Assembly (NCBI RefSeq): GCF_964213995.1
Contig: NC_135816.1
Span: forward strand, 7,750,001-7,814,000
Direction of reading: 5' to 3'
DNA: 64,000 nt
Origin: Mustelus asterias
Taxonomy: Eukaryota
Shown: piece by piece, positions 1,861-62,885 of the stretch
Layout: each line of letters opens with the position of its first letter
Position numbering within the stretch: position 1 is the stretch's first letter
The notes under the pieces: model-generated
The model's database searches: none
The model's input: the letters and a program-made list of their open reading frames with translations, nothing else
What the model was told of the DNA's origin: nothing
Position numbers and translations under genes: made by a program

Positions 1861-4329
1861 CTCATTGTTCACAGAGTTACCATAATGTTCTGAAGTCCTC
1901 AGCCCTGGATTTTCATCCGTGTTTGGTTTATTCCAGATATAATTCTTGTCCGTAGATGATTTGCATGTGTTTGATGTGATGAAGTCTCTCTTTGTTGACT
2001 GCAATGTTGAACATGACTCATAGCGGAAACTCTGAGAAAGTGGATCACCCCCGAATACCTCAACATAGTTGGGTGGTATCTGAAGATTTCTACTGGCCTT
2101 TTGGATTCCATTCAGAGAATGTTTTGTTTCAAAGCAGCAACAAACAGCCAGGGAACAGGGCTGACCTCCCAAAACATTTCTGCCGTTATGAACCTTAATG
2201 GCGAGGATAATTAAAATAATCAACAAAATGATAGAAATTGTACCTAAGGCTATGACTAAGGCATGGCTCAAATCCGCTGTGAGACTAGGATCATCCGATA
2301 AGTTGCTCACGTCAGGAAACGTTTCCATATCACTCCCAGTCACAGATAAGGTGATGATCACTGTGGCAGAGAGAGAAGGTGTTCCATTGTCTTTTACCAT
2401 AATCACCAACCTTTGCTGAGAGGCATCTTTATTCTTAATACGACGGATAGTCCAAATCTCGCCATTGTCTGGTGAAATAGTAAAGAGGTTATGCTGTGTA
2501 GCCTGAAAAATTGAATAAGAAAGACGAGCGTTCTGCCCGGCGTCAGCATCAGTGGCCGACACCTTAGCAACCAAGTAGCCTGGTTCTGCAAACCTGGATA
2601 TTGTCTCTGTTACTGTTGAGCCATACTCGGCTAATGGGTGCACGATCACTGGAACATTATCATTCTGATCAAGGATAATAACATTCACTGAGACATTACT
2701 GGCGAGTGGTGGGATTCCAGAGTCCATGACCTGAAGTTGGACCTGAAAGCTTTTCAATCGCTCATAGTCAAAAGATCTCTGAGAATATATGACACCACTC
2801 TCCGAGTTAATAGAAACGTAAGTGGAGACCGAAGAGTTCTGAACTTGAGTCTCCAGCAGAGAGTAGTTTAGTCGAGCGTTTAGTCCTATATCTGGGTCAA
2901 CGGCTATGACGGACAATACAGAACTCCCGATAATGTTATTCTCCACAACGTTTGCTGTGTAGAAACGCTGCGGGAACTGAGGCCGATTGTCATTTATATC
3001 TGAAACCTCCACCCGAATGGTTTTCCTGGTTGTGAGAGGAGGATTTCCTGCATCCGTGCATGTGATAGTAACGTCATAGTTGGAGGTATTTTCCCGATCC
3101 AGTCGACGCTGAATAAGTAGTCTGTAATAGCCCTTCATGGAAGAATCTAATGTAAAGGGGAGTTTCTTTGAAATTTCGCAATTTACTTGCCCATTTCGCC
3201 CCGAATCTTTATCTGCTGCACTGAACAGAGCAACTACAGTTCCAACTGGAGCATCTTCTGAAACTGTACTGGACAAAGTCCTCAGCGTCACCTCAGGTGC
3301 ATTATCATTCACATCAATAACATTAACCAAAACTTCACAGTGCTCCGGCATTGCATTTGGGCCCAGGTCCAATGCTTGTATGTTAATCTCATAAACATTT
3401 CTTTGTTCATAGTCCAAATTGCCTTTCACTCTGATTTCACCAGTTTTCGAATCCACTCCAAATATTTCACGGACTATTGCAGATGTATGGCTGCTAAGCG
3501 AGTACATTATCTCTCCATTTGAACCATCGTCTAAATCAGTGGCATTTACTGTGATTATTCGGGTACCAACTGGAGCATTTTCCAACACACTGACTCTGTA
3601 AACCGACTGGGAGAAAATAGGCGCGTTGTCGTTTGCATCTTTTACTGTGATTATGACCTGAGCAGTGCCTGACCTTACAGGGATCCCGCCATCCTTCGAT
3701 ATCAGCGTTAAACTGTGGGTTGATATCGTTTCCCTATCCAATGGCCTCTGCAACACCAGTACCGGTAACTTCCCTTCCCCACTCCGTATTTGTACATCGA
3801 GAGTGAAATAATCGTTCGGAAGGAGCTGGTATGTTTGTAGGGAGTTGTTTCCAATGTCCGGATCGTGCGCGGAGTCAAGGGGAAAACGCGCTCCAGGCGC
3901 AGCAATCTCTGAGATTTCGAGGCGGAACTGCCTCCTTGGAAAGCTGGGAGCATTGTCATTAACATCGAGGATTTCCACTTCAATTTGATACAGACTGAGG
4001 GGGTTTTCAAGCATAACATCCAAGGATAACACACAGGTCAGTGTAGACCCGCAAAGCTGTTCTCTATCAATCTTTTCCTTCACAAATATAATCCCGTTGT
4101 CTAATTTTACGTCCACATATTGTTTCTTCGGCCCAGACGCAACCTGCAAACTGCGAGCCGAGAGCTGCTTTATATCCAAACCCAAATCGGCTGCGATATT
4201 CCCAACAAAGGCGCCCTGTTCGAGTTCTTCAGGAATCGAATAACGAATTTGCCCAAACACTGGATTCCACGAGGAGAATACGCAATACAATAGCTGACAT
4301 TTTATCAACAAATGTATTTTATATCTCAT
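1861..4329 (-). CDS. Clustered protocadherin variable exon 1 (signal peptide, EC1-EC6, TM, variable cytoplasmic domain); expected to splice to constant exons outside the window
   Basis: ORF 1846..4389 has six cadherin repeats (DVNDNAP, DRE/DYE, AxDxD motifs), EC1 C-X5-C (REQLCGSTLTC) and a TM helix. The ORF-track start is GTG; the ATG shared by all paralogues (GAAATG, MRYK) is at 4329, with an alternative in-frame ATG at 4338. Phase-0 donor GAG|GTGAGA at 1861/1860. Confidence 0.95.
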
Positions 4330-4591
4330 TTCCAGCATAAAACATCCCAATTTTCTCAGTACGCTACTATACTGTTCATATCCTTTCACCAGTCTTTTGG
4401 GGATTTTCTTTTTAAATCCGAGGATCTGCGATGCGAAACATACCTGTCCGCTTTCCGAATCACTCTCTGACTTTATTTAAATCTTCGCATTCTGCCTAAA
4501 ATTGCCAATGGATTCTTGCACAAATCCTCCCGAGCTGCTCGTTATTCCATTTTACACTGCGTCTGGTCGTACGTGACGGTGTCTGGTTTAT

Positions 4592-4740
4592 GAAGGGGGC
4601 AGTCCGGATCCCCAATCACATTTCAGCTTCTGATTGGTGAACACAAGCACTGTGAAATTCAACGAATCAGAATGCTCTCTGTTTCTTAAAGCTGCAATGC
4701 TTCAAACCAGCGATATAATTATCGTTGCAGAATCAAAAAA
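4592..4740 (-). promoter_or_regulatory. Conserved variable-exon promoter cassette (exon 1)
   Basis: On the + strand: GAAGGGGGCAGTCCGGATC 4592, ATTGG 4633, CGAAT (degenerate CCAAT) 4663, CTTAAAGC 4685, distal module ~4717-4740. Same order and spacing upstream of all six exons. Confidence 0.75.
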
Positions 4741-5856
4741 TGATTTCACCTTTTTCTTCAGCGTGGTTATATCTGCCTGTTGTGAAAATATTTCGGTACA
4801 ACAACAGTATAACTAACATCTTAAAAAACAGCTTTATAGAATGTGCGATAAAGGAAATTAAATTCAAGAATATCAGGTGTCAGCTGAATTCATTCGCTCC
4901 ATCATTCCCTGCATGATCACAGGATGAATACTCGCCCCTGATTTTCTAATCACTGCCGTTGAGTAAAACTGAAGGAATATTAAAGAATTTCCCCGTGGAA
5001 AAAGAACAAATTGTTACTTTTATGATATATATATATATGCCCCGCCTCTTAGCCATACGATATTTATTAAGTCCCTTCGAAAGGTAGTCTTTACTCTTGA
5101 CTAAACACTTCAATCTCTAATCTTACTCGAAAACGACAAATTTTATGATCGTAACCCATATCATCACACTCACTCTAAGTTAAGTAGCATCTTGTCTTTA
5201 ATTTTACTTAAAACTACCACAGTTAAGTACTTAGTTTTGCAAATGCCTCCATCTTCTTGAAAATGAAAGTAAGTTCAGTTCTGAAACTGTTAAATGTAGT
5301 TTCCAAAGCTGTAAATTCAGAATACAGATCCGTCAACCTGTTAATGATGCAGCTACTTTATTTTTCAGATCACGTGCTCAGAACTGTCGGCCACACTCGA
5401 GAAAGGGAAAGTTCATTTGAATAATTAAAGTTAATGTTTATTCATTAGTCACAAGTATGTTTACATTAACACTGCAGTGAAGTTACTGTGAAATTCCCCT
5501 GGTCGCCACACTCCGGCGTCTGCTCGGGTAAACACACCTAACCATTTCAGAATCATGCCAGTAGAACTTGAAAATTAACGCCTTTCATGTGCTTTTCCTT
5601 TCTCGATTTGTCTGATTGTTACATTTTTCATGACTTAACACTTTCACAGTATGTACACTGTTGACTCCCATTTCAATTTGCTCTCTTTCAGCCTATGCCT
5701 TTGGAGATCTATTTTTGTTTTAAACAGAGGCACTGTTATTGTAACTGATACTGAATGCTTCACACTTCAATTTCATTTTTAATCTTATTCTCCCTGGAAA
5801 TAATCACATTCAGTTTATCTTGCTATCTGCCTACTTCTGGTCACTGGATTCATGGA

Positions 5857-9360: not shown

Positions 9361-11826
9361 CTCATTGCTTGTGATGTTGTAATTCTCAGAGTTCGTCAAC
9401 CCTGACATGTCTTTCCCAATAGATGCATTCTGTAGCGCGTACTTGGCTGTAGAAGGCCTACATGCATTTGGGGTTAGGAAGTCTCTCTTTGTTGACTGCA
9501 ATGTTGAACATGACTCGTAGCGGAAACTCTGAGAAAGTGGATCACCTCCAAATACCTCGACATAGTTGGGTGGTATCTGAAGATTTCTACTGGCTTTTTG
9601 AATTCCATTCAGAGAATGTCTTGTTTCAAAGCAGCAACAGGTGCTGAGGGAACAGTATTGCACACCCAAACCGTTTCTGTTTCGGTGGACCTTTACAGCG
9701 AGAATAATCATAATTACCAGAAAAATGGCTGAAATTATTCCTAAAGCGAATACTAAGGAAAGGCGCAGATCAGGTGTCAAAACAGGACCTTCTGATAAAC
9801 TGCTCACATCAGATAACAATTCAGCATCAGTACCTACAACAGTTAACATGATGGTCACTGTGGCAGAAAGTGATGGTGTTCCATTGTCTTTTACCATAAT
9901 CACCAACCTTTGCTTAGAGGCATCTTTATTCTCAACACGCCGGATAGTCCAAATTTCCCCAGTGTCTGATGAAATAGTAAAAAGGTTATGCTGGGTAGCC
10001 TGAAAAATGAAATAGGAAAGGCGAGCGTTCTGCCCGGCGTCAGCATCAGTGGCCGATACTTTAGCAACCAAGTAGCCTGGTTCTGCAAACCTGGATATTG
10101 TTTCTGTTACAGTTGAGCCATACTCGGCTAATGGGTGCACGATCACTGGAACATTGTCATTCTGATCAAGGATAGTAACATTCACTGAGACATTACTGGC
10201 GAGTGGTGGGGTTCCAGAGTCCATGACCTGAACTTGGACCTGAAAGTTGTTCATTTGCTCGTAGTCAAAAGATTTCTGAGTGATAATGGCCCCAGTCTCC
10301 GAGTTAATAGAAACGAAAGTGGAAACTGAAGAATTCTGAACGAGAGTCTCCAGTACAGTATATTTTAGACGAGCGTTTTGTCCTACATCTGGATCAAAGG
10401 CTGAGACGGAGAATATGGACGTCCCAATAGCATTATTCTCCTTCGCGTTTGCTGTGTATACAGTCTGGGTAAAACGTGGGGCATTGTCATTTATATCTGA
10501 AATCTCTACCCGAATGATTTTTTTGGATGTCAGAGGGGGATTTCCTGCATCCGTGCATGTTATAGTGACGTCATACCTGGGGTTATCTTCCCGATCCAGT
10601 AGGTGCTGAATAAGCAATCTGTAATAGTTATTCATGGAAGAATCGAGTTTAAAGGGCAGCTGATTTGAAATTTGACATTGTACCTGCCCATTTTGCCCCG
10701 AATCTTTATCTGCTGCACTGAACAGAGCGACTACAGTTCCAAGTGGAACATCTTCTGAAACTGTGCTCGACAAAGTCCTCACAGTCACCTCAGGTGCGTT
10801 ATCATTCACATCAATAATATCCACCAAAACATCACAATGCCCGGACATTGCGTATGGACTCTTGTCCATTGCTTGTATGTTAATCTCAAATTCACTGCTT
10901 TCCTCATAGTCCAAATTGCCTTTCACACTAATCTGACCGGTTTTGGGATCCACACCGAACAGCTCTCGAACTCTCGCGGAACTATGACTGCTGAAAGAGT
11001 AAACTATGTCTCCATTGGGGCCATCGTCCAAGTCAGTGGCATTTAATGTGATTATCAGGGTTCCTTTGGGTGCGGTTTCCAACAGTCTCGCTCTATAAAC
11101 TGACTGAGAAAAAACAGGGGCGTTGTCATTTGCATCCTTTACTATGATTGTAACATCAACTGTACCTGACCTAATGGGGGTCCCGCCATCTTTGGCTATC
11201 AGAGTTAAAATGTCTGTCGATTCTGTTTCTCGATCCAAGGACCTTTCCAACACCAATACTGGCAACTTTCCTTTTCCGCTGCGTGTTTGTATGTCGAGAA
11301 TAAAATGACCGTTCGGGAGGAGCTCATAGGTTTGCAAGGAATTTGTCCCAATGTCCGGATCGTACGCGGATTCGAGGGGAAAGCGCGTTCCCGGTGAGGA
11401 AAGCTCTGAGATTTCCAGGCGTAATTGTCTCTTTGCAAAACTGGGAGCATTGTCATTAACATCGAGAATCTCCACATCAACCTGGTATAGATTGATGGGA
11501 TTTTCAAGCATAACATCCAAGGATAACACACAAATCAGGGTGGGTCCACAAAGCGGTTCTCTGTCAATCCTTTCCTTGACAAATAAGATGCCATTGTTCA
11601 AATTTACGTCCACATATTGTTTCCTCGGCCCAGACGCAATCTGCAAACGACGAGCCGAAAGCTGCTTTATATTTAAACCCAAATCATCTGCGATATTCCC
11701 AACAAAGGCACCCGGCTGCAGTTCTTCAGGAATCGAATAACGAATCTGCGCAGAAACTAGATTCCACGAGGAGAATACGCAATATAGTAGTTGACATTTT
11801 AGCAACCAATATATTTTATATCTCAT
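9361..11826 (-). CDS. Clustered protocadherin variable exon 2
   Basis: ORF 9337..11847 has the same architecture. ATG (MRYK) at 11826 with an in-frame TAA shortly upstream; donor GAG|GTGAGG at 9361/9360. Closest paralogue of exon 1. Confidence 0.95.
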
Positions 11827-12083
11827 TTCCAGCCTAAAGCATTCCAATATTTTTTAGTCCGACGCGGCACCATGCATATCCTTTCAACTGTTTTCTTTGG
11901 AATTTGGTTAAACTCGAACAACGGCGATATTTAACTTACTTGCACGGTTTGCAATTCTCTCGGTTTAATTACTTTTAATCTTCATTTCTTGAATTGTTTG
12001 TTGGATTCCGCACAAATCCTCCCTCGCTGCTCGCTGCTCCATTTTACACTGCGTCTGATCGGACGTGATGGTGTCTGGTTTGT

Positions 12084-12240: not shown

Positions 12241-12614
12241 GAATTAAGCTTTTATTTCACTATTGTGGGCATTTATTTCTGCTATGAAAACTATCTCGAG
12301 ATATAAATGCACTGAACATCTTACAGATAACTTATGTTTATAAGATTTTTTTTTAAAATCAGGCATTAATGTTTGGTCCATCAGTTCGGTTCCATTTATA
12401 GTCCATTGACGATTATTCGATCAGGATTTTCCAATGTCCACCACGATTTGAGGACGATTGAATTACTGTCGACTCCTTGAACGGAAATAACGAATCAGTA
12501 TTATTAATATTTCAGTAATGATCCACTTCACTTCCAAACGGATATCCATCCAGATGCTTTGTAAATGTATCATTTGGCTTCAAATCATTTGTCTTTTCTG
12601 CAACACGCATGCAC

Positions 12615-13022
12615 CACCCGGTGCGGAGAGGGGAGGGTCGGGATGGCGACCTCCTCGTGAACCTGCTCCTGGGCCTGGCGAAACGCGCCATTTACCGGTC
12701 CAGGCTGCGGGCGATCGAGGGGGCCGTCCATCCTGACTGTCTTCCCCTCTACCGCGGCTACGTTTGTGGCCAGGTGACCCTGGAGAGGGAGCATGCGGTG
12801 TCCACGGGCGAGGTTGACGCTTTCCGCGCCCGCTGGGCACCGCAGGGGTTGGGGTGCATTATTGACCCCAATAATCACATTTTAATTTGATGTTTTTAAG
12901 TTTCCTTTGTACTTTGATTTCTGGTCGGGCTGTTCCCCCTCCTTTTTGGGGAGCTGCCCCTTTTACTTTGTCCTGATTTAATCTGAGTTTGTTTACTTGT
13001 TTTGGTTTGACCTAAAAAGAGG
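12615..13022 (+). mobile_element. 5'-truncated Tx1-clade non-LTR retrotransposon with 15-bp TSD
   Basis: ORF 12609..12890 (LVNLLLGLAKRAIYRSR..DCLPLYRG...FRARWA) resembles the Tx1 ORF2 C-terminus, followed by a T-rich 3' UTR. Direct repeat GCAACACGCATGCAC at 12600-12614 and 13023-13037. Confidence 0.75.
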
Positions 13023-13128
13023 GCAACACGCATGCACTGAATTGTGAAAGTACCTCTCTTTTCTAATCTTTTAAAAGCTTGCATGATATTTTTGAGAAAG
13101 TTTGGTCAAGAGTGTAAGCTACACCCCA

Positions 13129-13395
13129 GGCGGTACGGTGGCACAGTGGTTAGCGCTGGTGCCTCACAACGCCAGGGATGTAGGGCTGTTTCCCAGCTTG
13201 GGTCACTGTCTGTTGGAGTTTGCACGTTCTCCCCATGTCTGCGTGGGTTTCCTCTGTGTGCTCCGGTTTCCTCCCACAATTCGAAATGGTTAGCTGCATT
13301 TACCTGAATGACGCCGGAGTGTGTGACTAGGGGAATTTCACAGTAACTTCATTGTAGTGTAATGTAATCCTTACTTATGACTAATAAATAAACGT
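13129..13395 (+). mobile_element. V-SINE (HE1-like head and V domain)
   Basis: ggcggtacggtggcacagtggttagc tRNA-like head and ggagtttgcacgttctcccc..gtgggtttcc V domain. The tail is shared with a minus-strand fragment at ~5425-5540. Confidence 0.75.
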
Positions 13396-13924
13396 TACTT
13401 AGTTAGACAATTACGTTGTACAACTTAATTTGCTATGAGTTGAACACCAATGCATTATACACATCTCTGAATTTTCGATTTGTCCTCTTTCGCACTCTTG
13501 ACGCTGTTTGGATGCCTTCCTTGGGTGATCAGCGATCGTTCCAGTGTTTAAGTTTCTTTCTTGCTGTGTATAAAGTATTTACGTTTCCATGGTTTGCACA
13601 GTGTTACTGTGTTACTATATGTGCTTTCTTATTTGTTTCATATCTTGCATACTACAGACGCATTTATGATATGGTGCAAGTCGGGCAGAAAATAGTTAAA
13701 TTTCTTTCAACTCACTACATTACGTATAAGTTGTCCCTGAAATATTATAACATTATTGGAGCTTATCCATGCAATCCATAAACGTGATGTGCAGTGGAGA
13801 TCAGAGCAAACTCCTTGAGAAAGTCAGCACCGAACTTTGGACACTAAGCTAATTCTCATTCCGGCTGGATAATGTGCAACTTATTCCATGAGCATTAGAT
13901 TCCACTCCCTAGCTCATTGTGGGC

Positions 13925-14600
13925 TGGTCAAACTCCAACGAGTAAAGACCCAGAGTCCTCAACCGTTCCTCAAACGACAAGCTCTTCATTTCAGGGATCA
14001 TTCTTGCGAACCTCCTCTGGACCCTTTCCAAGGCCAGCACATCCTTCCTAAGATATGGGGCCCAAAAGTGCTCACAATACTTCAAATGGGGTCTGACCAG
14101 CGCCTTATACAGCCTCAGAAGGACATCCCTGCTCTTGTATTCTCGCCCTCTCGACATGAATGCTAACGTTGCATTTGCCTTCCTAACTGCCGACTGAACC
14201 TGCATGTTAATCTTAAGAGAATCTTGAACAATGACTCCCAAGTCTCTTTGTGTTTCTGATTTTCTAAGCATCTTCCTATTTAGAAAATAGTCCATGCCTC
14301 CATTTCTCCTTCCAAAGTGCCAAACCTCACACTTTTCCACATTGTATTCCATCTGCCACTTCTTTGCCCACTCTCCGAGCCTGTCCAATTCTTTCTGCAG
14401 CTCCCCTGCTTTCTCAATACTACCTGTCCCGCTACATATCTTTGTATCATCTGCAAACATAGCAACAGTGCCTTCAGTTCCTTCCTCCAAATCGTTAATT
14501 TATATTGTGAAATGTTGTGGTCCCAGCACTGACCCCTGAGGCACACCACTGGTCACCGGCTGCCATCCTGAAAAATACCCCTTTATCCCCACTCTCTGCC
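13925..14600 (-). mobile_element. CR1/HER1-like LINE RT fragment
   Basis: ORF 13909..14490: FADDTK, WQMEYNVEKC, LVRPHL, LERVQRR. Confidence 0.9.
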
Positions 14601-16727: not shown

Positions 16728-19199
16728 CTTATCAGTTATCGTGTTCCTATTGTTTGCAGACTTTGCTTGCAGTGCGCTTTCTTCTCTCCCCGGTGTTGCA
16801 CGACAGAAATAATCATTCCCTGTGGATGAGGTGCAAAGTTTGGAAAACAGGGCATCCCTTTGGGAAGAATTTAAAGTTGAACAGGTCTCATAACGGAAAC
16901 TTTGTGAAAGTGGATCCCCTCCAAATACTTCAACATAGTTAGGAGGTATTTGAATGTTTCGACTGGCTTTTTGAATCCCATTCAGCGAATTTCTTGCATC
17001 AAAGCAGCAACAGATATCCACATGACAACGGCGATCGTCAAAACCATGTCTGCGCTGATGAACCTTGACAGCCAGGATAATTAATACCACCAGAAAAATC
17101 GACGAGAGAATCCCTAAAGATATGACTAAATAAATACTGATGTCAGAAGTCAACCCAAAATTCCCTGATAAGTTACTTGCAACAGACGACATTTCTGTAT
17201 CGTCCTCCACAACCGTCAAGGCAATAGTTACCGTAGCGGATAGGAATGGTGTTCCATTATCCTTCACCAAGATGAGCAACTTTTGCCTTTTGCTATCGCT
17301 CTTGACTATTCGACGGGTTGTCCAGATTTCCCCAGTGTCGGTAGAAATAGTAAAAAGACCAGGATCTGTAGCTTGACGAATCTGATAAGAAAGTTGAGCA
17401 TTTCGACCCGTGTCCGCGTCGTTGGCCGATACCTTAGCAACTAAGTACCCAGGTTCAGCGAAACGGGACATTGTTTCCATCACGGTTGAACCAAACTCGG
17501 GCAATGGATGGACAATCACTGGGGCATGGTCATTCTGATCCAGGATGACAAAATCCACCGAAACCTCGCTGGCGAGTGCTGGGTCTCCAGAGTCTTGAAC
17601 CTGAACCTGGATTTGAAAGTTTTTAAGGTGCTCGTAATCGAACGATCGCTGAGAAAATATGATACCACTGCTCGAGTTAATGTGGACATAAGAGGACGCC
17701 AGAACACCCTGAATCTGTGTCTCAAGGATAGAGTAGGATAATCGAGAGTTCTGATTTAAATCAGGATCAAAGGCTGTGACTTGAAAAATGGAAGTCCCGA
17801 TAACATTATTCTCCATTATATAAGCAGTATACGATGGCTGCGTGAAGCGTGGGGGGTTGTCGTTTACATCGGAAATCTCCACCAGGACTGCTTTGTTGGA
17901 AATTAGCGGAGGGTTTCCCCCATCCCTGCACGTGACAGTAACGTCATACTTAGAGGCATCTTCGCGGTCCAGCTGCCGCTGCGTGAGCAATCTGTAATAG
18001 TTTTTTAAAGATAGGTCAAGCTTGAAGGGAAGGTTCTCTGAGATTTCACATGCTACTTGCCCATTTTGTCCCGAATCTTTATCAGCTGCGTTGAGCAGAG
18101 CAACTACGGTGCCCGGCTGCGCATCTTCACTAACTGGACTGGACAAAGACGTCAAAGTCACTTCAGGGGCATTATCGTTAACATCAATAATATCCACCAC
18201 AACATCACAATACACGGGCATTGCGTTCGGACCCTTGTCAATAGCTTGCACGTTAATGGCGAATACACTGCTCTCTTCATAGTCCAAAAGACCTTGAACT
18301 GTGATTTCGCAATTTTTGGAATTCATACTGAACAGTTCAGACACTCTGACTGCTGTCCGGCTGCTGAATGAATATTCTATTTCTGCGTTAGGGCCAGCGT
18401 CCAGATCAGTAGCATTTAACTTGATTACTGCAGTTCCTTTGGGTGAGTTTTCTAACAGCCTGACCCTATAAGCCGCCTGAGGGAAAACAGGAGCGTTGTC
18501 GTTAGCATCCTGGACCAGGACGGTGATTTGAGCAGTACCCGACCATTCAGGAGATCCTCCGTCCTTGGCTATCAGCACCAGACTGTGGGCTGAGTGCATT
18601 TCTCTATCCAGAGGCCTTTCCAGCACCAGAACTGGAATCTTCCCCACTCCACTGCGCGTCTGGACATCCAGGGCGAAATAATCGTTCGGGTGGAGCTGGT
18701 AGGTTTGCACGGAATTGCTTCCTACGTCTGGATCGTGCGCAGACTCGAGGGGGAAGCGGGCTCCAGGCGCAGCAAGCTCTGAGATTTCAAGGTGAAGCTC
18801 GCCCTTTGGAAATCTGGGAGCATTGTCATTTACATCCAGAATCTCCACTTCAACGTGGTACAAATTGAGGGGGTTCTGAATCACAGCCTCCAAGGACAGC
18901 ACACAATGGAGGCTAGATTCGCAAAGCTGTTCTCTGTCTATTTTTTCCTTCACAAAGAAACTTCCATTATCTAAATTTACCTCCAAATACTGTTTCCTGG
19001 CACCGGCCACGATCCGCAAACTGCGAGCCGAGAGCTGCTTTATATTTAAACCCAAATCGGCTGCGATATTCCCAACAAAGGCGCCCAGTTGCAGTTCCTC
19101 AGGAATCGAGTAACGAATCTGCCCAGAAATTAGATCGCAGGAGAACAAAATGTAGAACAATGGTTGCCATTTTAGCAACCAAATTATTTTATTTCGCAT
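16728..19199 (-). CDS. Clustered protocadherin variable exon 3
   Basis: ORF 16716..19220 has six EC repeats plus TM. ATG (MRNK) at 19199; donor AAG|GTGAGA at 16728/16727. Confidence 0.95.
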
Positions 19200-19441
19200 T
19201 TCCACGATTCCACATTCCAAAGATTTCAGGGCGAGGCGGCACCGTTTAAAATCGCTGTAACAGTTAAGTGGATATCTTTCCTTAACATGAACGAACTGAT
19301 TGTGCGGCAGGTCCTCTGCGTCTTTTGAGAATCGCCGAGGTTACTTCGTCAAATCGTCTCATTTCGGCGAAAATTACCGGTGAAACATTGCAGCTCGCAA
19401 TCCAGTGTACACTGGTCTGATGTGAGGAGATGGAGGATGGT

Positions 19442-34358: not shown

Positions 34359-34360
34359 TA

Positions 34361-38915: not shown

Positions 38916-38969
38916 ATGTAATTGTTCATTATTTTCATGTTTTAATGGATTGCAGGGTTTTACTTTATA

Positions 38970-40597: not shown

Positions 40598-40732
40598 TTC
40601 CTTTAAAAAGCCTTCCAAAAGTTTGACAATGTCGTCATCAGTCAGCTACATTTCCCTCATACTTCGGCTGATACAATAATTTAAATGCGGACTATCATGT
40701 CATCATGAGCTCTGTGCCTCTGATGATGCCAA

Positions 40733-42030: not shown

Positions 42031-42049
42031 CATTTTATGTGAATTAAGC

Positions 42050-45113: not shown

Positions 45114-46460
45114 ACAAAGAACAAAGAACAAAGAACAATACAGCACAGGAACAGGCCCTTCGGCCCTCCAAGCCCGTGCCGCTCCCTGGCCCAAACTAGC
45201 CCATTCTTTTGTATCCCTCCATTCCCACTCCGTTCATATGGTTATCTAGATAAGTCTTACACGTTCCCAGTGTGTCCGCCTCCACCACCTTGCCTGGCAG
45301 CGCATTCCAGGCCCCCACCACCCTCTGTGTAAAATATGTCCTTCTGATATCTGTGTTAAACCTCCCCCCATTCACCTTGAACCTATGACCCCTCGTGAAC
45401 GTCAACACCGACCTGGGGAAAAGCTTCCCAACGTTCACCCTATCTATGCCTTTCATAATTTTATACACCTCTATTAAGTCTCCCCTCATCCTCCGTCTTT
45501 CCAGGGAGAACAACCCCAGTTTACCAAATCTCTCCTCATAACTAAGCCCCTCCATACCAGGCAACATCCTGGTAAACCTCCTCTGTACTCTCTCCAAAGC
45601 CTCCACGTCTTTCTGGTAGTTTGGCGACCAGAATTGGACGCAGTATTCCAAATGCGGCCGAACCAACGTTCTATACATCTGCAACATCAGACCCCAACTT
45701 TTATACTCTATGCCCCGTCCTATAAAGGCAAGCATGTCATATGCCTTCTTCACCACCTTCTCCACCTGTGACGTCACCTTCAAGGATCTGTGGACTTGCA
45801 CACCCAGGTCCCTCTGCGTATCTACACCCTTTAAGGTTCTGCCATTTATCGTATAGCTCCTCCCTACATTATTTCTACCAAAATGCATCACTTCGCATTC
45901 ATCAGGATTGAACTCCATCTGCTATTTCTTTGCCCAAATTTCCAGCCTATCTATATCCTTCTGTAGCCTCTGACAATGCTCCTCACTATCTGCAAGTCCT
46001 GCCAATTTTGTGTCGTCCGCAAACTTCCTGATCACCCCAGTTACACCTTCTTCCAGATCGTTTATATAAATCACAAACAGCAGAGGTCCCAATACAGAGC
46101 CCTGTGGAACACCACTAGTCACAGGCCTCCAGCCGGAAAAAGACCCTTCCACTACCACCTTCTGTCTTCTGTAACCAAAGCAGTTCTCCACCCATCTAGC
46201 CACCTCCCCCTTTATCCCATGAGATCCAACCTTTTTCACCAGCCTACCATGAGGGACTTTGTCAAACGCTTTACTAAAGTCCATATAGACGACATCCACG
46301 GCCCTTCCCTCGTCAACCATTCTCGTCACTTATTCAAAAAACTCCACCAGGTTAATGAGGTATGACCTCCCTCTCACAAAATCATGCTGACTATCGTTAA
46401 TGAGTTTATTCCTTTCTAAATGCGCATACATCCTATCTCTAAGAATCTTCTCCAACAACT
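45114..46460 (-). mobile_element. Young CR1-like LINE inserted in a minus-strand L2 fragment (~44760-45110, ~46460-46550)
   Basis: ORFs 45196..45918 and 45922..46329 carry full RT motifs; (AAAGAAC)n tail at 45114-45140. Confidence 0.9.
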
Positions 46461-49393: not shown

Positions 49394-51838
49394 CTCATTA
49401 TTTCTGGAGTTCCGGATGTTTACATTCCGGAAAGGTTCGTCATTCCCATTCGGTACGTTTGTTTTGCATACAGATGACCCGTACATGTCAAGGAACTTTG
49501 TATCCTTCTTAACTGTACCTGAGGTCGAACAAGTGTCATAGCGGAAGCTTTGAGAAAGTGGATCGCCCCCAAAAACTTCGACGTAGTTCGGACCAAGTTC
49601 AAGATTTCTGCTGGCTTTTTGAATTCCATTCAGGTCTTCGAAACAGCAACACGTGTCCAGGTAACCGATATGGACTCCAAAACGATTCCTGTTTTTATGA
49701 ACCTTAATGGCGAGGATAATTAAAATGATGAGGAAAACAGATGATGTTATCCCTAAAGATATAACCAAGTAAAGGCTGACATGATTAAAGGAACCTGGAT
49801 CTTCAAACAAACTGGTCACATCAGAAAGCATTTCCGTATCACCCTCTGTCAGTGATAAGATGATTGTCATTGTGGCTGAAAGCGGAGGTGAACCGTTGTC
49901 TTTTGCAGCAATAACCAACCTTTGCCTCGTGGCATCTTTGCTCATAATGCCTCGGATGGTCCAGATTTCACCTGTATCTGGTGAAATGGTAAAAAGTCCC
50001 TGGTCAGTAGCCTGACGAATCTCGTAAGTGAGGCGTGCGTTCTGACCAGAGTCGGCATCTGTGGCCGACACCTTGGCAACTAGATAGCCTGGTTCTGCAA
50101 AACGAGATACAATCTCTGTTACTGTAGATCCATATTCTGGCAATGGATGTACGATGACAGGAGCATTATCATTCTGATCAAGGATTACCAACTCTACTGT
50201 GACGGTGCTGGATAGTGACGGGACTCCAGAGTCCGTAACCTGAACTTCAAACTGAAAACTTTTGATTCTTTCGTAGTCAAAAGACCTTTGAGAAATTATA
50301 GTTCCCTTTTCTGATTGGATGTGGACGTAACTAAATACTGACTCGTCCTGTACCTGTGTTGATTGAATGGAATAGTTTAGTCGAGAGTTCTGTTTTAAAT
50401 CTGGATCAAAAGCTGTCACTGAAAATATAGACGTTCCAATAACGTTGTTCTCCATCACATAAGCTGTATATAAAGGTCGCGAAAAGCGTGGCGCATTGTC
50501 ATTTACATCCGAAACCTCCACCAGGATGACTTTCTGTGAGGTGAGAGGTGGGGATCCTGAATCACTGCACATAACTGTGACTTCATACCTGGAGACATTT
50601 TCACGATCAAGTCCCTGTTTTGTACGCAATGTTAAGTATTTCTTAGATGATGAATCCAGTTGAAAGGGAACGTTTTCTGCGACTTTACATTCCACCTGCC
50701 CATTTTCTCCTGAATCTTTGTCTGTTGCACTGATTAGAGCCACAACTGTCCCGGACACTGAGTCTTCGTTAACTGGACTGAACAACGTAGAAACAGTCAC
50801 CTCTGGGACGTTATCATTGATATCCACAACATGAACCAGCACAAGGCAATAAGCAGGGACTGCATAAGGTCCCTTGTCCGTTGCTTGCACATTAATCTCA
50901 AAAAGCTTGTTCTCCTCATAGTTTAAATTGCCCCTGATTCTGATTTCTCCAGTTTTAGAATCCAGACTGAACAACTCCCGCACTCTAACCGCTGTGTGAC
51001 TCGTGAAAGAATAAATAATCTCACCGTTCAAACCATCGTCCAAGTCAGTGGCATTTAGTTTGATCACCAATGTCCCTCTGGTTATATTTTCGGAAAGGCT
51101 GACGTTGCAAACTGGTTTGGCGAACACCGGCGTGTTGTCGTTCGCATCTTGTACACTGATTATTATCTCAGCCGTTCCTGACCGCGGAGGGATTCCTGCG
51201 TCTTTGGCAATCAAGCGTAACCTGTGATGTGCTACTTTTTCTCTATCCAGTGACCTTTTCAAAACTAATACTGGCATATCTTCATTCGCATTTCGACTCT
51301 CAACATTCAAGACAAAATTCTCGTCTGTTAGTAGCCGGTATGACTGCAGGGAGTTGGTTCCTACGTCTGGATCGTGCGCAGAATCAAGTGGATACCGGGT
51401 TCCTGGTGCGGCCGCCTCGGAGATTTCAAGGCGGAATTGATTTTTAGGAAATGTCGGAGCATTGTCGTTTACATCCAGAATCTCCACTTCAACATCGTGC
51501 AGAGTGAAAGGGTTTTCTATCACTGTTTGTAAAGATAACAGGCACGCCGCAGTCGGTCCGCAGAGATTTTCTCTGTCAATCTTTTCCTTCACAAATAAAT
51601 TACCATTGTTCATATTTACTTCGAAATATTGTTTTTTGTGACCAGGCACAATCCGAAAGCTGCGAGCTTTGAGCTCCTTCAGGTCTAAACCCAAATCCTC
51701 TGCGATATTCCCAACAAAGGCCCCCAGTTGTAGCTCTTCAAGTATTGAATAGCGAACCTCCCCAGATATTTGATCGAAAACCCACATACAGTATAACAGC
51801 GACCATCTGAATTGCCAAAATCGTTTATAATATATCAT
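49394..51838 (-). CDS. Clustered protocadherin variable exon 5
   Basis: ORF 49379..51847. ATG (MIYY) at 51838; donor GAG|GTGAGG at 49394/49393. Confidence 0.95.
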
Positions 51839-52083
51839 TTCCAGCACAAATCATCCCAGTTGCCTCAGCCCGAATGCTTGGTCACGCCGAAATATTTTTA
51901 AAGTCTATTTTCCAGTGAAGGATTATATCAAAATATCAGCAGATTTAAAATTATGGGTATTACCGCTCACGGACCATCTTATTTCTGTGAAAAATCGCCC
52001 CTTGTTTGTGTTCCAGCCGCTAACCAAGCTGCCGGGTCCGCTGTTCATCTGTGCCTGGACGAGCGCAGTGGTGAATGGGATGG

Positions 52084-52241: not shown

Positions 52242-52589
52242 TTGCAACGAGGCACTCTTTTTTCTCAAATGCCAGAATGGCATTTGTCAACTAATAAATC
52301 ATTTCATATCAGCTCACAGTTTTACATAATTGCGTTGAGATGAGCAGAAACCCGTTAATTACGAAACTTTGGAGGTGCTGTTGAAATCTAAATTATAATT
52401 CATCAAATCCTATTAAATTTCGTTATTGGCAACTCTACTCCAATTTGTAGTAAACGCAATTTTAATGCCGACATGTTGGAACTGACATCAGTATTTTACA
52501 CGCCCGATTTGAGATAATGACTTCCTTTTACCACTGAGCAATAATGCAGCGAGGACGGACTAGTCAGCAATGATGTTTATGAAGAAGGA

Positions 52590-53040
52590 ACAAAGAACAA
52601 AGAACAAAGAACAGTACAACACAGGAAAAGGCCCTTCGGCCCACCAAGTGTGTGCCGACACAAATGCCTCTACAGTCGGAAATTTTCTTGCCTCTACGTG
52701 GTCCATATCCCTCTGTTCCCTGCCTATTCATGTATCTATCCAGATGCCACTTAAACGTCGTTTTAGAATCTGCTTCCACCGCCTCCTCCGGCTGCGCGTT
52801 CCAGGCATTCACCAGCTTCTGTGTGAAAAAGTTGCCCCTTTCATCTCTTTTAAACTTTCCCGCGCTCGCTTTCAACCTAAGTCCCCGAGTAGTTGACTTT
52901 TCGACCCTGGGAAAAAGACTCTGACTATCCACTCTATCCAAGCCTGTCATAATCTTGTAAACCTCTATCAGGCCAAGTACAACCACCCCACCCCCTTATC
53001 CTCCAAGGCTCCAAAAAAAAACAATCCATATTTGATCAAC
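52590..53040 (-). mobile_element. CR1-like LINE 3' end
   Basis: ORF 52564..52986 (LIEVYKIMTGLDRVD..NFFTQKLVNAWN); (AAAGAAC)n tail. Confidence 0.85.
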
Positions 53041-53534
53041 CTCCAAGGCAGGCAATACTCTAGGAGGTGATGGCTTATTGGTATTATCGCTAGACCATTA
53101 ATTCAGAAAGTCAGCTAATGTTCTGGGAACCCGGGTTCGAGTCCCACCACAGCAGATGCGGTATTACAACGACAGAGCATGCTTTACTTCTTCGAATGAA
53201 AGACAGCAGTTTGACCGTGCGTATGAAATACTCATACAATGCGGAGTTAAACGATGTTTTCACGCAGCATTTGAAGACAATCTGATCACGATAATTTCCT
53301 GATGCCCCTTGACGCCACATCATTCCCCACTTATATTCAGGTGTGAGTTCTGATGTTTGGACAATTTCATCACCAATAGAATCTTTGGCCTCGATTTGAG
53401 GTGTCGAAATCTTACTGAGTGGAAGGATCTGGTTTTTGTACTGTTTGCTCAGAGTCGCTGATTCATGCTGCGATGTGCCAGTAATATAGGGATGGGAGCC
53501 AGACAGATAGTGTTGGTTTGGCAAGTCGCAAAGC

Positions 53535-53770
53535 TGTGTTAACCTGTGTTTAATGCTCCCTCCACCCACATTGTCTGTATCTTTAAGACCTGGTTGGCTG
53601 TAGGGATTCGCATTCTAATCAGTATTCTGTAACTTGATTTTGTGTCTGTGCCCTGTTTGAGAGCACATTTCCACTCCATCTGACGAAGGAGCAGCGCTCC
53701 GAAAGCTAATGGTATTTGCTACCAAATAAACCTGTTGGACTTTAACCTGGCATTGTTAAAACAGTTACTG
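53535..53770 (+). mobile_element. Penelope-type/retrozyme-like 3' repeat with 12-bp TSD
   Basis: Flanked by AAGTCGCAAAGC at 53523-53534 and 53771-53782; contains a hammerhead core and AATAAA. Confidence 0.65.
53676..53712 (+). ncRNA. Minimal type I hammerhead ribozyme motif
   Basis: Stem I CCAT(53676-79)/ATGG(53709-12); core CTGACGA (53680-86) plus an extra A; stem II GGAGC-AGC-GCTCC; GAA followed by palindromic AGCT as stem III; predicted cut after A53708. Confidence 0.6.
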
Positions 53771-53879
53771 AAGTCGCAAAGCACCAGTGGACTTCAGCTC
53801 GATATTTTCCCCATACTAGCATTCTGAAACTTCTGGCAATAAAGTTTATGTCAGGACTTTCCCCTTAAAATTTCGTTCT

Positions 53880-56600
53880 AATAAGACCGTAAGACGATAA
53901 GATATAGGAACAGGAGTAGGCCATTCGGCCACTTGAGCCTACTCTGCCAATTAATAGGATCAGGGCTGGCATTCCTTGCATCCACTTTCCTGCCCTTTTC
54001 CCATAAGCCCTGATTCTCTTACCGATCAAAGATATATCTATCCCAGCGTTAAGAAACATAGAAACATAGAAAAACTACAGCACAAAACAGGCCCCTCGGC
54101 CCCACAAGTTGTGCCGAACATATCCCTACCTTTTAGGCCTACCTCCCACCCTCCATCCTATTAAGTCCCATTCACTCATCCAGGAGTCTCTTAAAAGACC
54201 CTATTGAGTTTGCCTCCACCACCACTGACGGCAGCCGATTCCACTCGCCCACCACCCTCTGTGTGAAAAACTTCTCCCCAAACATTTCCTCTGTACCTAC
54301 CCCCCAGCACCTTAAACCTGTGTCCTCTCGTAGCAGCCATTTCCACCCTGGGAAAAAGCCTCTGAAAGTCCACCCTATTTATGCCTCTCAACATCTTATA
54401 TACCTCTATTAGGTCTCCTCTCATCCTACGTCTCTCCAGGGAGAAAAGACGAGCTCCCTCAGCCTATCCTCATAAGGCATGCCACTCAATCCAGGTAACA
54501 TCCTTGTAAATCTCCTCTGCACCCTTTCAATCTTTTCCACATCCTTCCTGTAATGAGGCGACCAGAACTGAACACAGTACTCCAAGTGGGGTCTGACGAG
54601 GGTCTTATATAGCTGCATCATTATCCCCGGACTACTAAACTCAATCCCTCGATTGATAAAGGCCAGCACACCATACGCCTTCTTAACCACCTCCTCCACC
54701 TGCGGGGCCGATTTTAGAGTCCTATGGACCCGGACCCCAAGGTCCTTCTGATCCTCTGCAGTATGAAGAGTCTTTCCTTTTATATTGTACTCCTTCATCC
54801 CATTTGACCTGCCAAAATGGACCACTACGCATTTATCTGGGTTGAAGTCCATCTGCCACTTGTCCACCCAGTCTTGCATCCTATCTATGTCCCTCTGTAA
54901 CTTCTGACATCCCTCCAGACTATCCACAACCCCACCAACCTTCGTGTCGTCGGCAAACTTACCAACCCATCCCTCCACTTCCTCATCCAGGTCATTTATG
55001 AAAATGACAAACAGCCAGGGTTCCAGAACAGACCCCTGGGGCACACCACTGGTGACCGAACTCCATTTAGAAAAAGACCCATCTATACACACTCTCTGCC
55101 TCCTTTGGGCAAGCCAGCTCTGGATCCACAGGGCAGCAGGCCCTTGGATCCCATGCCCTCTCACTTTTTCTAGAAGCCTTGCATGGGAGACCTTATCGAA
55201 TAGACTAGACTCAGTCCCCACAGATTTCTGTTGCAAGGAGTTCCAAAAACTCACAACTCTCTTAGTGAAGAAATTCCTCCTCATCTCAGTCTTAAATTCG
55301 TGCCTTTTTACTCTGAAACTATGCCCTCTGGTCCTTGACTCTCCCATGAGGGGGAACATCATCTGGCATTTGCACTGTTAAGCTCCTTATGAATCCTATA
55401 TGTTTTAAAGTGATCACCTCGCATTCTTCTGAATTCAAATGAATAGTGTCCCAACCTATTTAACCATTCTTCAAAAGACAATCCCTCCATACTGAGGATT
55501 ATCCTGGTGAACGTTTCTTGAACTGTCCCCAATGAGATAATGTGCAGCAAGACTTCCCTACTCTTATACTACAACCTCCTTGACAGATTTACAGATGCAG
55601 CAAGACTTCCCTACTCTTATACTACAACCTTCTTGAAATAAGCGTCAACATTCCACTCGCCTTCCTGCACCTTTGTGCTCTTTCCGTGTTTCGTGCACAA
55701 GTACCTCGAAATCTCCGTGTTGTCGTTTTCTGCAGATTTCTCCATTTAAATAATACACTGTTATTTTGCTTTCCTTGCAAATTGAAGAAGTTCACATTTT
55801 TCCATGTGATGCTCCGTTTGCCAGTATTTGCCAACTTACTTAACCTATTGATATCTGTATGTAAACTGTTCGTATCTCTGTCGCATTTTGCCTTTCCATC
55901 TATTTTGTGTCATCTGAAAATTTGGCTGCCAGACATTTGCTTCCTTCCTCCAAGTAAATAAAAGATATTATAAACAGTTGCAATCCGAGCACTGGTCCCT
56001 CTGAAACCCCACTGATTAGAGGTTGCAACCTGAAAAAGAATCTCTTATCTGCACTCGCTGCTTCCTTCCCATTAACCAAATCTCTATGCATGTCAAAATA
56101 CTACCTCCAACACGATGGGTTCTTATCTTAAGATGGGTTCAGTACAGTGGTACAGTGGTTAGCACTGCTGCCTCACAGCGCCAGGGACACGGGTTCAATT
56201 CCGGCCTTGGGTCACAATGTGAAGACTGCATATTCTCCCCATGTCTGCGTGGGTTTCCTCCGGGTGCACTGGTTTCCTCCCACTGTCCAAAGATGTGCAG
56301 GTTGGGTGGATTGGCGATGCTAAATTGACATTAGTGTCCGGGGGATTAGCTAAAGTAAATATGTAGGTTTACGAGAATGAGGCTTGGATGGGATTGTCGT
56401 CGCTGCAGACTTGATGGGCTGAATGGCCTCCTTCTGCACTGTAGAGATTTTATGATTAACTTAACTTCTTGTAATGTACCTTGTTGAACGTCTTTTGCAA
56501 GTCCAAATACAACTTGTTCACCATGTAGCCACTCTGGTCCAGACTGCCTCAAAACACTCCAATAAATTAGTCAGAACCATTTCCCTTTCATGAAGCCATG
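53880..56600 (-). mobile_element. Older CR1-like LINE with a younger CR1 (~54050-55200) and an HE1-like SINE (+, ~56135-56455) nested inside
   Basis: ORF 54421..55362 is a chimera of two CR1 copies; tails (AGAAACAT)n at ~54052 and ataagaccgtaagac at ~53881; KFSDDTK at 55900..56091. Confidence 0.85.
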
Positions 56601-58870: not shown

Positions 58871-58919
58871 ATTTTATGAACACAATTATTTTTCATTTAA
58901 TTTTGGGGATATGAATGAG

Positions 58920-60173: not shown

Positions 60174-62630
60174 CTCACTATTTATGGTATTTTTGCAGTT
60201 GACATTTCGTAGCATTTCTTCATCTCCACTCATGACGTTATTCTTGGAGCTGGATGACCGATACTTGTTAGAAAATATGGCGTCTCTCTTGGCTGTGCCT
60301 GAAGATGAGCACGAGTCATAGCGAAAACTTTGGGAAAGTGGATCGCCCCCAAATACTTCAACATAGTTCGGAACTATTTCAAGATTTCTGCTAGCTTTTT
60401 GAACTCCATTCATGGAATTTCGTCCGTTGAGGCAACAGCAAGTATTTCGAAAACCATTTTGTGCACCAAATATGTTCCTGTTATTTTTAAGCTTAAGGGC
60501 GAGAATAATTAAAACGACGAGGAAAATTGAAGAGGTTATCCCTAACGATATAACTAAGAAAAAACTGATGTCACTAACAGAACCAGAATCCTCAGACAGA
60601 ATGCTCACGTCAGAAAGCATTTCCGTATCACCCTCTGTCAGTGATAAGATGATTGTCATTGTGGCTGAAAGCGGAGGTGAACCGTTGTCTTTTGCAGCAA
60701 TAACCAACCTTTGCCTGGTGGCATCTTTGCTCATAATGCCTCGGGTGGTCCAGATTTCACCTGTATCTGGTGACATGGTAAAAAGTCCCGGTTCAGTAGC
60801 CTGACGAATCTCGTAAGTGAGGCGTGCGTTTTGACCAGAGTCGACATCTGTGGCCGACACCTTGGCAACTAGATAGCCTGGTTCTGCAAATCGAGATACA
60901 ATCTCTGTTACTGTAGATCCATATTCGGGCAATGGATGTACGATAACAGGAGCATTATCATTCTGGTCAAGAATTACCAACTCTACTGTGACGGTGCTGG
61001 ATAGTGACGGGACTCCAGAGTCCGTAACCTGAACTTCAAACTGAAAACTTTTGAGTCTTTCATAGTCAAACGACCTTTGAGAAATTATAGTTCCCTTTTC
61101 TGATTGCATATGGACGTAACTAAATACTGACTGATCCTGTACTTGCGTCGGTTGTATGGAATAGTTTAGTCGAGAGTTCTGGTTTAAATCTGGATCAAAA
61201 GCGGTCACTGAAAATATAGACGTTCCAATAACATTGTTCTCCATCACATAGGCTGTATATAAAGGTCGCGAAAAGCGTGGCGTGTTGTCATTTATATCCG
61301 AAACCTCCACCAGGATCACTTTCTGTGAGGTGAGAGGAGGAGATCCTGAATCACTGCACAGAACTGTGACTTCATATCTGGAGACATTTTCCCGATCAAG
61401 TCCCTGTTTTGTACGCAATGTTAAGTACTTCTTGGATGATGAATCCAGTTGAAAGGGAACGTTTTCTGCGGTTTTACATTTTACCTGCCCATTTTCTCCT
61501 GAATCTTTGTCTGTTGCACTGATTAGAGCTACAACTGTCCCGGGCACGGCATCTTCGGTAACTGGACTGAACAACGTAGAAACAGTCACCTCTGGGGCGT
61601 TATCATTGATATCCACAATATGAAGCAGCACATGACAATAAGCAGGGACTGCATAAGGTCCCTTGTCCATTGCTTGCACATTAAGCTCGAAACGCTTGTT
61701 CTCCTCATAGTTTAAATTGCCCCTGATTCTGATTTCACCAGTTTTAGAATCCAGACTGAACAACTCACGGACTCTACCGGAGGCATGGTTACTAAAAGAG
61801 TACAGAATCTCCCCATTTGGACCGGCATCCAAATCAGTGGCATTTATCTTTATTACCAATGCTCCTTTGGGTGCGCTTTCTGAAAGACTGATGTTGTAAA
61901 CCGACTGCGAGAAGACAGGAGTGTTATCATTTGCATCTTTTACACTGATTATTATCTCGGCACTTCCGGATCGTTCCGGGACCCCTCCGTCTTTGGCGAT
62001 CAACACTAACCTGTGACTGGATATCTTTTCTCTGTCAAGTGACATTTTTAGCACTAACACAGGCATGTCGTCATTCCCATTTCGACTCTCAACATTTAAA
62101 GTGAAGTACTGGTTGGCATCCAGCTGATACGACTGGAGGGAGTTGGTTCCTACGTCTGGGTCGTTGGCACGCTGAAGGGCGTAGCGAGTTCCCGGTGAGG
62201 CCCCTTCGAAAATTTCAATGCGGAATTGTTTTTTTGGAAAAATCGGTGCGTTATCATTTACATCGAGAATTTCCACTTCAACATCGTAGAGGCTGAAAGG
62301 CTTTTCGATCACAGTTTCCAAAGATACAGGACACGTTTCACTCGACCCACACAGCTGTTCTCTATCTATATATTCCTTCACAGATAAAATACCATTGTTC
62401 AAATTTAGGTCGAAATACTGTTTCCTGGGCCCGGGAACGATCCGAAAACTGCGAGCCGCGAGCTCCTTCACATTTAAACCCAAATCATCTGCGATATTCC
62501 CAACAAAGGCGCCCAGTTGCAGCTCTTCCGGAATCGAATAGCGAATCTGACAAGAAATCAGATCCCACAAGCAGAATGCACAGTGCAACAGTGACCATTT
62601 TAACAGCCAGTGTCGTTGATAATATCTCAT
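60174..62630 (-). CDS. Clustered protocadherin variable exon 6
   Basis: ORF 60165..62723. Paralogue-conserved ATG (MRYY) at 62630, plus an upstream in-frame ATG at 62666 (MALRS); donor GAG|GTGAGC at 60174/60173. Confidence 0.95.
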
Positions 62631-62885
62631 TTCCAGCACAAAGCATCCCAATGATCTCAGCGCCATGGACAATTCATTCGAATAAATATATGATCCCTGA
62701 TCGAAGTAGTAGATTTCACCCAAACACTTGTGCGGTCTAAAATCTTGACATTATTTCTTTGTCGATCTCCTTATTGATGCGAATCATCAGCACTGATTTA
62801 AAGCGCAACAGCTCTTAAAAAGCAGCCGCGGCCCCAGCTTTCACAATGAACCGTGGCGACAACTGCGCAATGGTGCTTGGGAAGG

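Follow-up and report, generated by a model that had tools for sequence, protein, structure and literature searches.

Clustered protocadherins are nerve-cell adhesion genes whose diversity has been explained almost wholly by promoter choice. The window analysed here, a 64,000-nt stretch of the Mustelus asterias genome, contains six intact protocadherin variable exons, each of which carries an additional ATG at a fixed distance ahead of its main start codon, and this arrangement raises the question of what the upstream ATG (uATG) does and whether it is retained by selection.

All six pairs of uATG and main ATG were confirmed in the sequence, at the coordinates and with the peptides of the upstream open reading frames (uORFs) given in the preliminary description; they lie on the minus strand, and in each pair the two ATGs are separated by 16 nt and differ in frame. 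In the protocadherin-nu variable exon 1 (coding part 1861-4329, main ATG at 4329, GT donor after 1861), the uATG at 4343-4345 opens a uORF (MFYAGNEI-stop, 4345-4319) that crosses the main start, and at -9 (4336-4338) there is an in-frame ATG in a weak context, which the orthologous contig of run X3 does not preserve. The uATG of exon 2 (11840-11842; coding part 9361-11826) heads a uORF that ends ahead of the main start (ML-stop, 11842-11834); a second uORF in this exon runs from -47 to +4, and the in-frame stop reported upstream of the main ATG at 11826 is present. The corresponding uATGs of exons 3, 4 and 5 are located at 19213-19215, 38516-38518 and 51852-51854, with uORFs MWNRGNAK-stop (19215-19189), MLCAGNEIF-stop (38518-38489) and MICAGNDIL-stop (51854-51825) ahead of coding parts at 16728-19199, 36052-38502 and 49394-51838, respectively. 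Exon 6 (coding part 60174-62630) has its uATG at 62644-62646 and a 53-codon uORF (62646-62485). The main ORFs of the six exons span 819-829 codons, and five of the six uORFs stop downstream of the main start.

The uATG had been proposed to be cluster-wide; it turned out to be limited to one clade, which comprises 28 of the 75 intact exons of the locus and belongs to the protocadherin-nu subcluster. Elephant shark nu15 and nu17 (UniProt names) nest inside this clade (FastTree support 0.886), which is therefore old, and the constant tail downstream at C16:7528.7k matches theirs and is of the nu type, each clade exon ending in a GTGAG donor. An ATG at -15/-16 is kept in 26 of the 28 intact exons: 24 have it at -16, two have it at -15, in frame with the main ORF and with a stop of its own, and the two that lost it read ACG and ATT. 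In 23 of the 28 exons the uORF extends past the main start before it ends, and in one it stops short of it. Since more than half of the leaders (16/28) have a further ATG with a purine at -3 upstream of the uATG, the latter is not always the first to be met, and two exons possess an open in-frame ATG farther upstream (-54 and -36) that would bypass it. Elsewhere in the genome, three exons (C16:8281701, 8314097 and 8336091) of another clade, located upstream of another constant region, have an out-of-frame ATG at -25 with long uORFs (+77 to +116).

The position of the uATG about 200 nt inside a probable leader is weakly indicated by contigs from three studies. In exon 1 these RNA-like contigs run through the uATG with no joint, and their ends at 4548, 4549 and 4553 (-219, -220 and -224) delimit a probable 5' leader at 4330-4553; they are a weak hint, as the RNA status of runs X1-X3 is a guess, none being recorded as RNA, and contigs cannot show transcript starts. 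A DNA-like run continues past -220, where the RNA-like contigs end, and run X6 covered none of the leader. These data weakly indicate an unspliced leader of approximately 220 nt. A donor-like AGGTA at about -114, found with a loose pattern in 22 of 28 clade leaders, was set aside as an explanation, the three contigs being unspliced there and the GT being changed in run X3. Because just 19 of the 224 leader positions vary among the cross-species contigs, these were uninformative on conservation.

For the conservation of the uATG, Fitch changes were counted over the coding-sequence tree of 27 paralogues, and the count was repeated with the 28th exon. Among the 27, the A, T and G of the uATG changed 0, 1 and 0 times, the joint lowest sum among 195 leader triplets, as compared with means of 4.5 changes per leader column (207 columns) and 4.9 per fourfold site (n = 39, none invariant). 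With the 28th exon the uATG showed 2 changes and was still joint lowest, among 179 triplets. The probability of a triplet sum of at most 1 was 3e-5 against the distal leader columns and 0.016 against the rest of -35..-1. ATG occurred elsewhere in the clade leaders less often (3.7) than expected from shuffles (5.2). The supposition that the uATG is conserved beyond chance thus holds, and its conservation far above the neutral rate is supported by these counts.

Shared ancestry or gene conversion without selection could in principle yield the same rows of identical letters, all the more because 13 of the 28 exons belong to a single recent family whose leaders are almost identical. The changes were, however, counted on the tree and not over rows, and the clade is old. 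Moreover, the distal leader columns evolve at 0.97-1.07 times the third-position rate, which the uATG does not, and the tree of the 5' region largely follows the coding tree, so that no clade-wide conversion is indicated. Simple paralogue identity or conversion, the alternative named in the preliminary description, is thereby largely refuted, and we regard it as very unlikely.

The immediate sequence context of the uATG resembled that of a genuine start. The G at -3 of the uATG is invariant, positions -2 and -1 changed 3 and 2 times and +4 six times, while the same positions (-3, -2, -1 and +4) of the main ATG showed 0, 2, 2 and 3 changes; the pattern of an invariant G at -3 with variable -2/-1 and +4 copied from the true start is supported. 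Tested against an evenly constrained hexamer, it gave a post hoc p of 0.04 (27 exons) or 0.10 (28 exons). The expectation that the uATG would be more conserved than its neighbours was not borne out, six other columns in -33..-1 (G-33, C-30, A-27, G-19, G-4 and G-3) being invariant among the 27 paralogues and TGG at -5..-3 equalling the uATG in conservation. The ratio of the -35..-1 rate to the third-position rate is 0.58 in the uATG clade versus 0.96-1.80 in four groups of other exons, a pair of which share members. Since the conserved block extends from -33 to +18, a start codon alone is not enough as its explanation, and the conserved flanking bases probably have a second job at the DNA level.

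A protein-level origin of the block appears quite unlikely. It might be what is left of an originally longer in-frame signal-peptide start, at a CTG at -30 or at ATGs further up, the uATG arising out of Glu/Gly-Cys codons. The in-frame reading L-K-x-L-E-C-F-V-L-E-M indeed recurs in the clade and in predicted proteins of catshark, whale shark and sawfish (P0003, P0021, P0006 and P0047), the start of sawfish P0047 corresponds to the in-frame ATG at -54 of exon C16:7592221, and the invariant G at -33 is what would be expected of the -3 base of a CTG at -30. This frame is nevertheless broken by stops in 3/27 and by indels in 3/27 exons, and the A of the uATG, a third position in the main frame, never changes. 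As judged from step counts rather than ancestral sequences, and hence with low power, silent changes in this frame numbered 1 versus 6.4 expected in -12..-1 and 12 versus 12.2 in -33..-13, and the N-terminal extension was rejected for the lack of a silent excess and for its broken frame.

That the uORF peptide itself (M-x-x-A-G-N-E/G-I) is under selection is extremely unlikely in our estimation. Its Ala-Gly pair hardly varies, with GCA and GGC occurring as silent variants, and its stop shows a TAA/TGA swap once; three of its codons, though, are fixed by the main start, and the counts of silent changes for the uORF frame (5 versus 6.3 expected in the leader part, 4 versus 4.0 in the overlap) gave no excess in this low-power test, so that a conserved peptide was rejected. 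A special role of the early uORF stop was likewise abandoned, as the tree showed three independent TAA-to-TCA losses against the single stop-keeping TAA-to-TGA change. Two of these three losses fall on branches where the uORF was already broken, a post hoc hint (p 0.03 with 27 exons, 0.08 with 28). At the RNA level, RNAalifold, applied to 16 of the 28 leaders, predicted no conserved pairs, which disposed of a hairpin drawn by eye between -28 and -9, and an Rfam search of 4200-4800 returned one chance match (E 0.47) outside the leader.

We consider that there is about an even chance that the uATG starts a short overlapping uORF that damps translation via leaky scanning and lowers protein output. 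According to the scanning model, some scanning ribosomes would initiate at the G-x-x-ATG, translate across the true start in the wrong frame and terminate at +11 or +14 (22 exons) or at +146 (one exon); they would be unable to reinitiate on the main ATG, and protocadherin would be made only by ribosomes leaking past the uATG. As the +4 base of the uATG is G in just 1 of 27 paralogues, the uATG would be leaky and would act as a damper rather than an off switch. The isoform ratio could change with differences in context and with additional uATGs or bypassing in-frame ATGs.

Such an element belongs to a known type of control: out-of-frame overlapping uORFs repress and the main ORF is reached through leaky scanning (PMC10275272), vertebrate ATGs are depleted close to coding starts, and the average contribution of uORFs to translation is small (PMC4890304). 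Like the overlapping, leaky-scanned uORFs known from this work (PMC10275272, PMC4890304), the shark uATG is a leader ATG, out of frame and with a purine at -3, whose ORF mostly crosses the main start; unlike them, it occurs at fixed spacing across a clade of paralogous alternative first exons and sits in a wider conserved block. For the shark protocadherins, leaky scanning at this uORF and the resulting drop in protein are predicted effects. If it operates, a start-codon damper across an old isoform clade would add a translational layer to protocadherin control, and the natural variants (ACG, ATT, in frame with a stop, early stop, long uORF and bypass ATG) constitute a ready reporter series.

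The main rival to this uORF reading is a binding motif: the whole -33..+18 block may be a DNA- (or RNA-) binding element of which the ATG is merely part, its translation being tolerated and not selected. We regard this as possible but doubtful. In its favour, the flanks match the ATG in conservation, and the constraint continues at silent positions beyond the main start, where codons 2, 3, 4 and 6 each have an invariant third base and one of these bases lies downstream of the uORF stop. In addition, -33..-27 reads as a putative left half-site of REST on the opposite strand. The NRSE consensus (PMC2926608) was matched over its initial 7 letters at -27 in 18 of 28 clade exons, compared with 1.1 in shuffles and 3 of 47 other exons. 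Exon 6 further shows a full candidate NRSE/REST-like site (62657-62672, plus strand) that departs from the 16-letter consensus of PMC2926608 at 1 position and overlaps the in-frame ATG at -36 (62666-62664, minus strand). REST is reported to bind motifs that consist of a half-site alone and to act within protocadherin exons (PMC8096226), and five elephant shark NRSEs have been tabulated (PMC2926608).

Several observations weigh against a REST site. The half-site was picked after the block was seen, and 13 of its 18 matches come from the one recent family. The right half was found in 1/28 exons, and a canonical NRSE (both halves, 2-nt or 5-11-nt spacer) lay within 2 mismatches in 1/28, the left half alone being matched in 18/28. 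The GGAATG hexamer, which we take to resemble a TEAD site, is unexplained by REST, and it is intact in 19/28 exons versus 26/28 for the ATG itself.

The promoters of the clade also differ from those of the remaining locus. A CGCT box directly before the promoter CCAAT was found in 39 of 47 other intact exons and in 0 of 28 uATG exons, as exemplified by exon 1, whose CCAAT box at -309 (4631-4638, minus strand) has none before it; a Fisher p was not used, as the box was lost a single time on the tree. Mammalian C-type protocadherin genes are also without a CGCT box. The coincidence of the uATG with this loss suggests that these exons form a group whose regulation differs from that of the remaining cluster, and the loss makes a different control plausible, as the binding-element rival would have it. 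The known CSE/CGCT box (CTCF) and NRSE (REST) of clustered protocadherins (PMC7811963, PMC4978886, PMC2926608, PMC8096226) are, like the uATG, short elements at a fixed distance from variable start codons. These known elements act on DNA, whereas the shark block lies inside the probable transcript, and the CSE, located about 200 bp upstream where known, is absent in the uATG clade. A broader scenario, which we put forward as a rather unlikely speculation, is that an old shark nu branch left CTCF/CGCT-box random promoter choice for a start-proximal REST-like half-site plus a leaky decoy start, with broad transcription, in the manner of the mammalian C-type genes, of about 28 isoforms whose relative dose would be set at translation; together with the clade bearing the ATG at -25, decoy starts would then have been recruited at least twice.

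The loss of the uATG in two decayed variable exons of the window had been advanced as further evidence. Relic A (24735-29180, minus strand) survives in four pieces (29180-27800, 27210-26863, 26705-26550 and 24986-24735) and relic B at 39847-40625 (minus strand); both are genuine protocadherin remnants (nhmmer E 4.6e-54 for A and 2.4e-22 for the body of B). AGG is indeed read at 29083-81 and 40613-11, as had been described, but its homology in relic B is uncertain because the weakly aligned start region scores -3.3 bits (E 1.6 in the window). At 58-62% identity to the intact exons, any three bases survive with a probability of about 0.2, and loss of the triplet in both relics is expected in about 60-65% of cases, so that the absence of the uATG there is uninformative. 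A third relic, located just outside the window, has lost both ATGs.

The majority of the best 100 of 150 scored candidates in the protein search were located on contig C16 (NC_135816.1) between 7.59 and 9.40 Mb, and fetching the start regions of the matches recovered 86 exon starts on C16, including 75 with a long open frame, which were defined as intact. Three constant tails were identified on C16 at 9375.5k, 8102.2k, and 7528.7k. The last of these corresponded to the C-terminal end of the elephant shark protocadherins nu15 and nu17, and both proteins also nested within the clade containing the exons of the window. Both lines of sequence evidence place the window (C16:7750001-7814000) in a shark nu subcluster. 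The six pairs of out-of-frame upstream ATG (uATG) and main ATG (main ATGs at 4329, 11826, 19199, 38502, 51838, and 62630; exons 1 to 6) were reproduced in coordinates, minus strand, and peptides of the upstream open reading frame (uORF), with main ORFs of 819-829 codons.

The uATG clade comprised 28 intact exons (C16:7592221-7832354). The uATG was located at -16 in 24 exons; in two sister exons it lay at -15, in frame and followed by its own stop (MC*), and in the other two it was replaced by ACG or ATT. The uORF ended at +11 or +14 in 22 exons, at +146 in one, and ahead of the main start in one. None of the other 47 intact C16 exons had an ATG at -16 or -15, while 10 had some ATG within -30 to -1 and 12 some overlapping uORF, as counted with partly hand-chosen start codons. 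The uATG is thus a clade-specific feature rather than the cluster-wide element initially described. Elsewhere on C16, three divergent exons of another subcluster (C16:8281701, 8314097, and 8336091) shared an ATG that lay out of frame at -25 and opened long uORFs overlapping the main start; these exons form a different clade and lend no independent support to a function of the -16 uATG. The leaders of a neighbouring clade (L027-L037, C16:7892k-8032k) shared an invariant block featuring a GTAATG that resembled a splice donor as well as an ATG at approximately -87, whose frames varied and mostly stopped before the start. In the leaders of a recent 13-exon expansion (L003-L015, C16:7624k-7726k), a second ATG at -46 shared its frame with the -16 uORF.

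Relics A and B were both true remnants of variable exons with AGG at the homologous place, although the start of relic B aligned weakly (-3.3 bits). Their loss of the uATG, taken in the preliminary description as evidence, is uninformative and adds nothing to the case for conservation, since at 58-62% identity both relics are expected to lose the triplet approximately 60-65% of the time. Relic A was split into four pieces, and in a third relic just outside the window (C16 ~7816.9k) both the uATG and the main ATG were lost. Reverse-transcriptase-like open frames, which we take to be LINE-type, were located between the exons at 12500-14500, 22600-23800, 29600-34000, 45200-46300, and 52500-55400.

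A maximum-likelihood coding tree was built from 27 clade exons, the divergent 28th being first omitted and included in a later run. On the 27-exon tree, the A, T, and G of the uATG underwent 0, 1, and 0 changes, respectively, the joint lowest among 195 leader triplets. Leader columns averaged 4.5 changes and fourfold sites 4.9, with none of the 39 fourfold sites invariant. Neutral inheritance and clade-wide conversion were both rejected on the basis of these counts together with the 5'-region tree, which mostly agreed with the coding tree. The last 35 leader bases were slow in this clade alone (0.58 vs. 0.96-1.80 in other exon groups), and the distal leader columns evolved at the third-position rate (relative rate 0.97-1.07, which alignment error may inflate). 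Among the clade paralogues of this genome, conservation of the uATG was therefore well above the leader average, and equalled by a TGG at -5. From these alignments, we regard the uATG as a real, old, and clade-limited conserved feature.

In favour of the start-codon reading, the context of the uATG resembled that of the true start, with an invariant G at -3, three and two changes at -2 and -1, and six at +4. The hexamer GGAATG was intact in 19 of the 28 exons as compared with 26 for the ATG itself (p 0.04-0.10, post hoc). That the block is a binding motif in which the ATG is incidental is possible, though less probable. Speaking against a start codon as the entire explanation are the TGG, the invariant G-33, C-30, and A-27, and main codons 2, 3, 4, and 6, whose third positions were invariant while the amino acids varied (vs. 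2% of 470 mature third positions). Nucleotide-level constraint thus exists inside the coding start, within the first six codons. In 18 of the 28 exons, the -33 to -27 block read on the opposite strand agreed with the initial seven letters of the REST consensus given in PMC2926608; the motif was picked post hoc, and 13 of the matches represented one young family. REST as the motif leaves the ATG unexplained. A near-canonical candidate REST site (NRSE) with one mismatch to the full consensus was located at 62657-62672 on the plus strand, just upstream of the exon 6 start. No excess of silent changes was detected in any frame examined, no conserved RNA fold was found in the clade leaders, and the early uORF stop was lost three times. 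The conserved block is best seen as composite. We place even odds on selection of the uATG for translational damping; the small share left by damping and a motif is divided among inheritance, a selected peptide, and the remnant of a longer extension.

In the proposed damping mechanism, the uATG, which has a G at -3 but usually lacks one at +4, would capture a share of the scanning ribosomes, which could not reinitiate at the true start because the uORF frame runs across it, and the protocadherin would be made by leaky scanning. Leaky scanning past an overlapping out-of-frame uORF is described in PMC10275272, and according to PMC4890304, ATGs are depleted near vertebrate coding starts and the average repression exerted by uORFs is modest. 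The uATG might also set dose per isoform, as first suggested. Further upstream ATGs with a -3 purine were present in 16 of the 28 leaders, and in-frame bypass ATGs in two exons. Open in-frame ATGs were observed at -36 (window 62666), at -9 (window 4338), and at -54 in L020 (C16:7592221); the last matched the predicted start of a sawfish protein (P0047), and thus the signal peptide of this isoform may be longer. No account of uORFs in clustered protocadherins was found among the papers listed in literature searches or in the consulted passages of PMC3308164; Yu et al. (2008), on the elephant shark, may cover the region. The decoy-start principle itself is already known.

Among the assembled contigs, no run was recorded as RNA, and three contig sets, each from a different study and organism, were guessed to be RNA. 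Their coverage was almost entirely confined to exon 1 with its leader, and one contig per set spanned the uATG without a joint, ending at 4548, 4549, and 4553 (-219 to -224). A contig of run X2, with a loose end matching the leader of exon 38502, extended about equally far, the DNA-like run X4 continued past these ends to 4760, and a CCAAT box was found at approximately -300. These observations hint weakly that the uATG lies in an unspliced leader of 220 nt. No contig differed at 4343-45, but this agreement says little because only 19 of the 224 leader positions vary. A splice-donor-like AGGTA was present at approximately -114 in many clade leaders (window 4443 in exon 1), where it was unspliced in the three contigs seen; two other clades had it at approximately -80 to -93.

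The CGCT box preceding the promoter CCAAT was absent from all 28 uATG-clade exons and present in 39 of the 47 other intact exons. As its loss was one evolutionary event, the association with the uATG amounts to a co-occurrence along a single branch and not a statistic. In mammals, PMC7811963 reports that this box binds CTCF and is absent from alpha-c2, beta1, gamma-c4, and gamma-c5, and that C-type genes are constitutively expressed in Purkinje cells. A C-rich element at approximately -270 might be a candidate alternative CTCF site.
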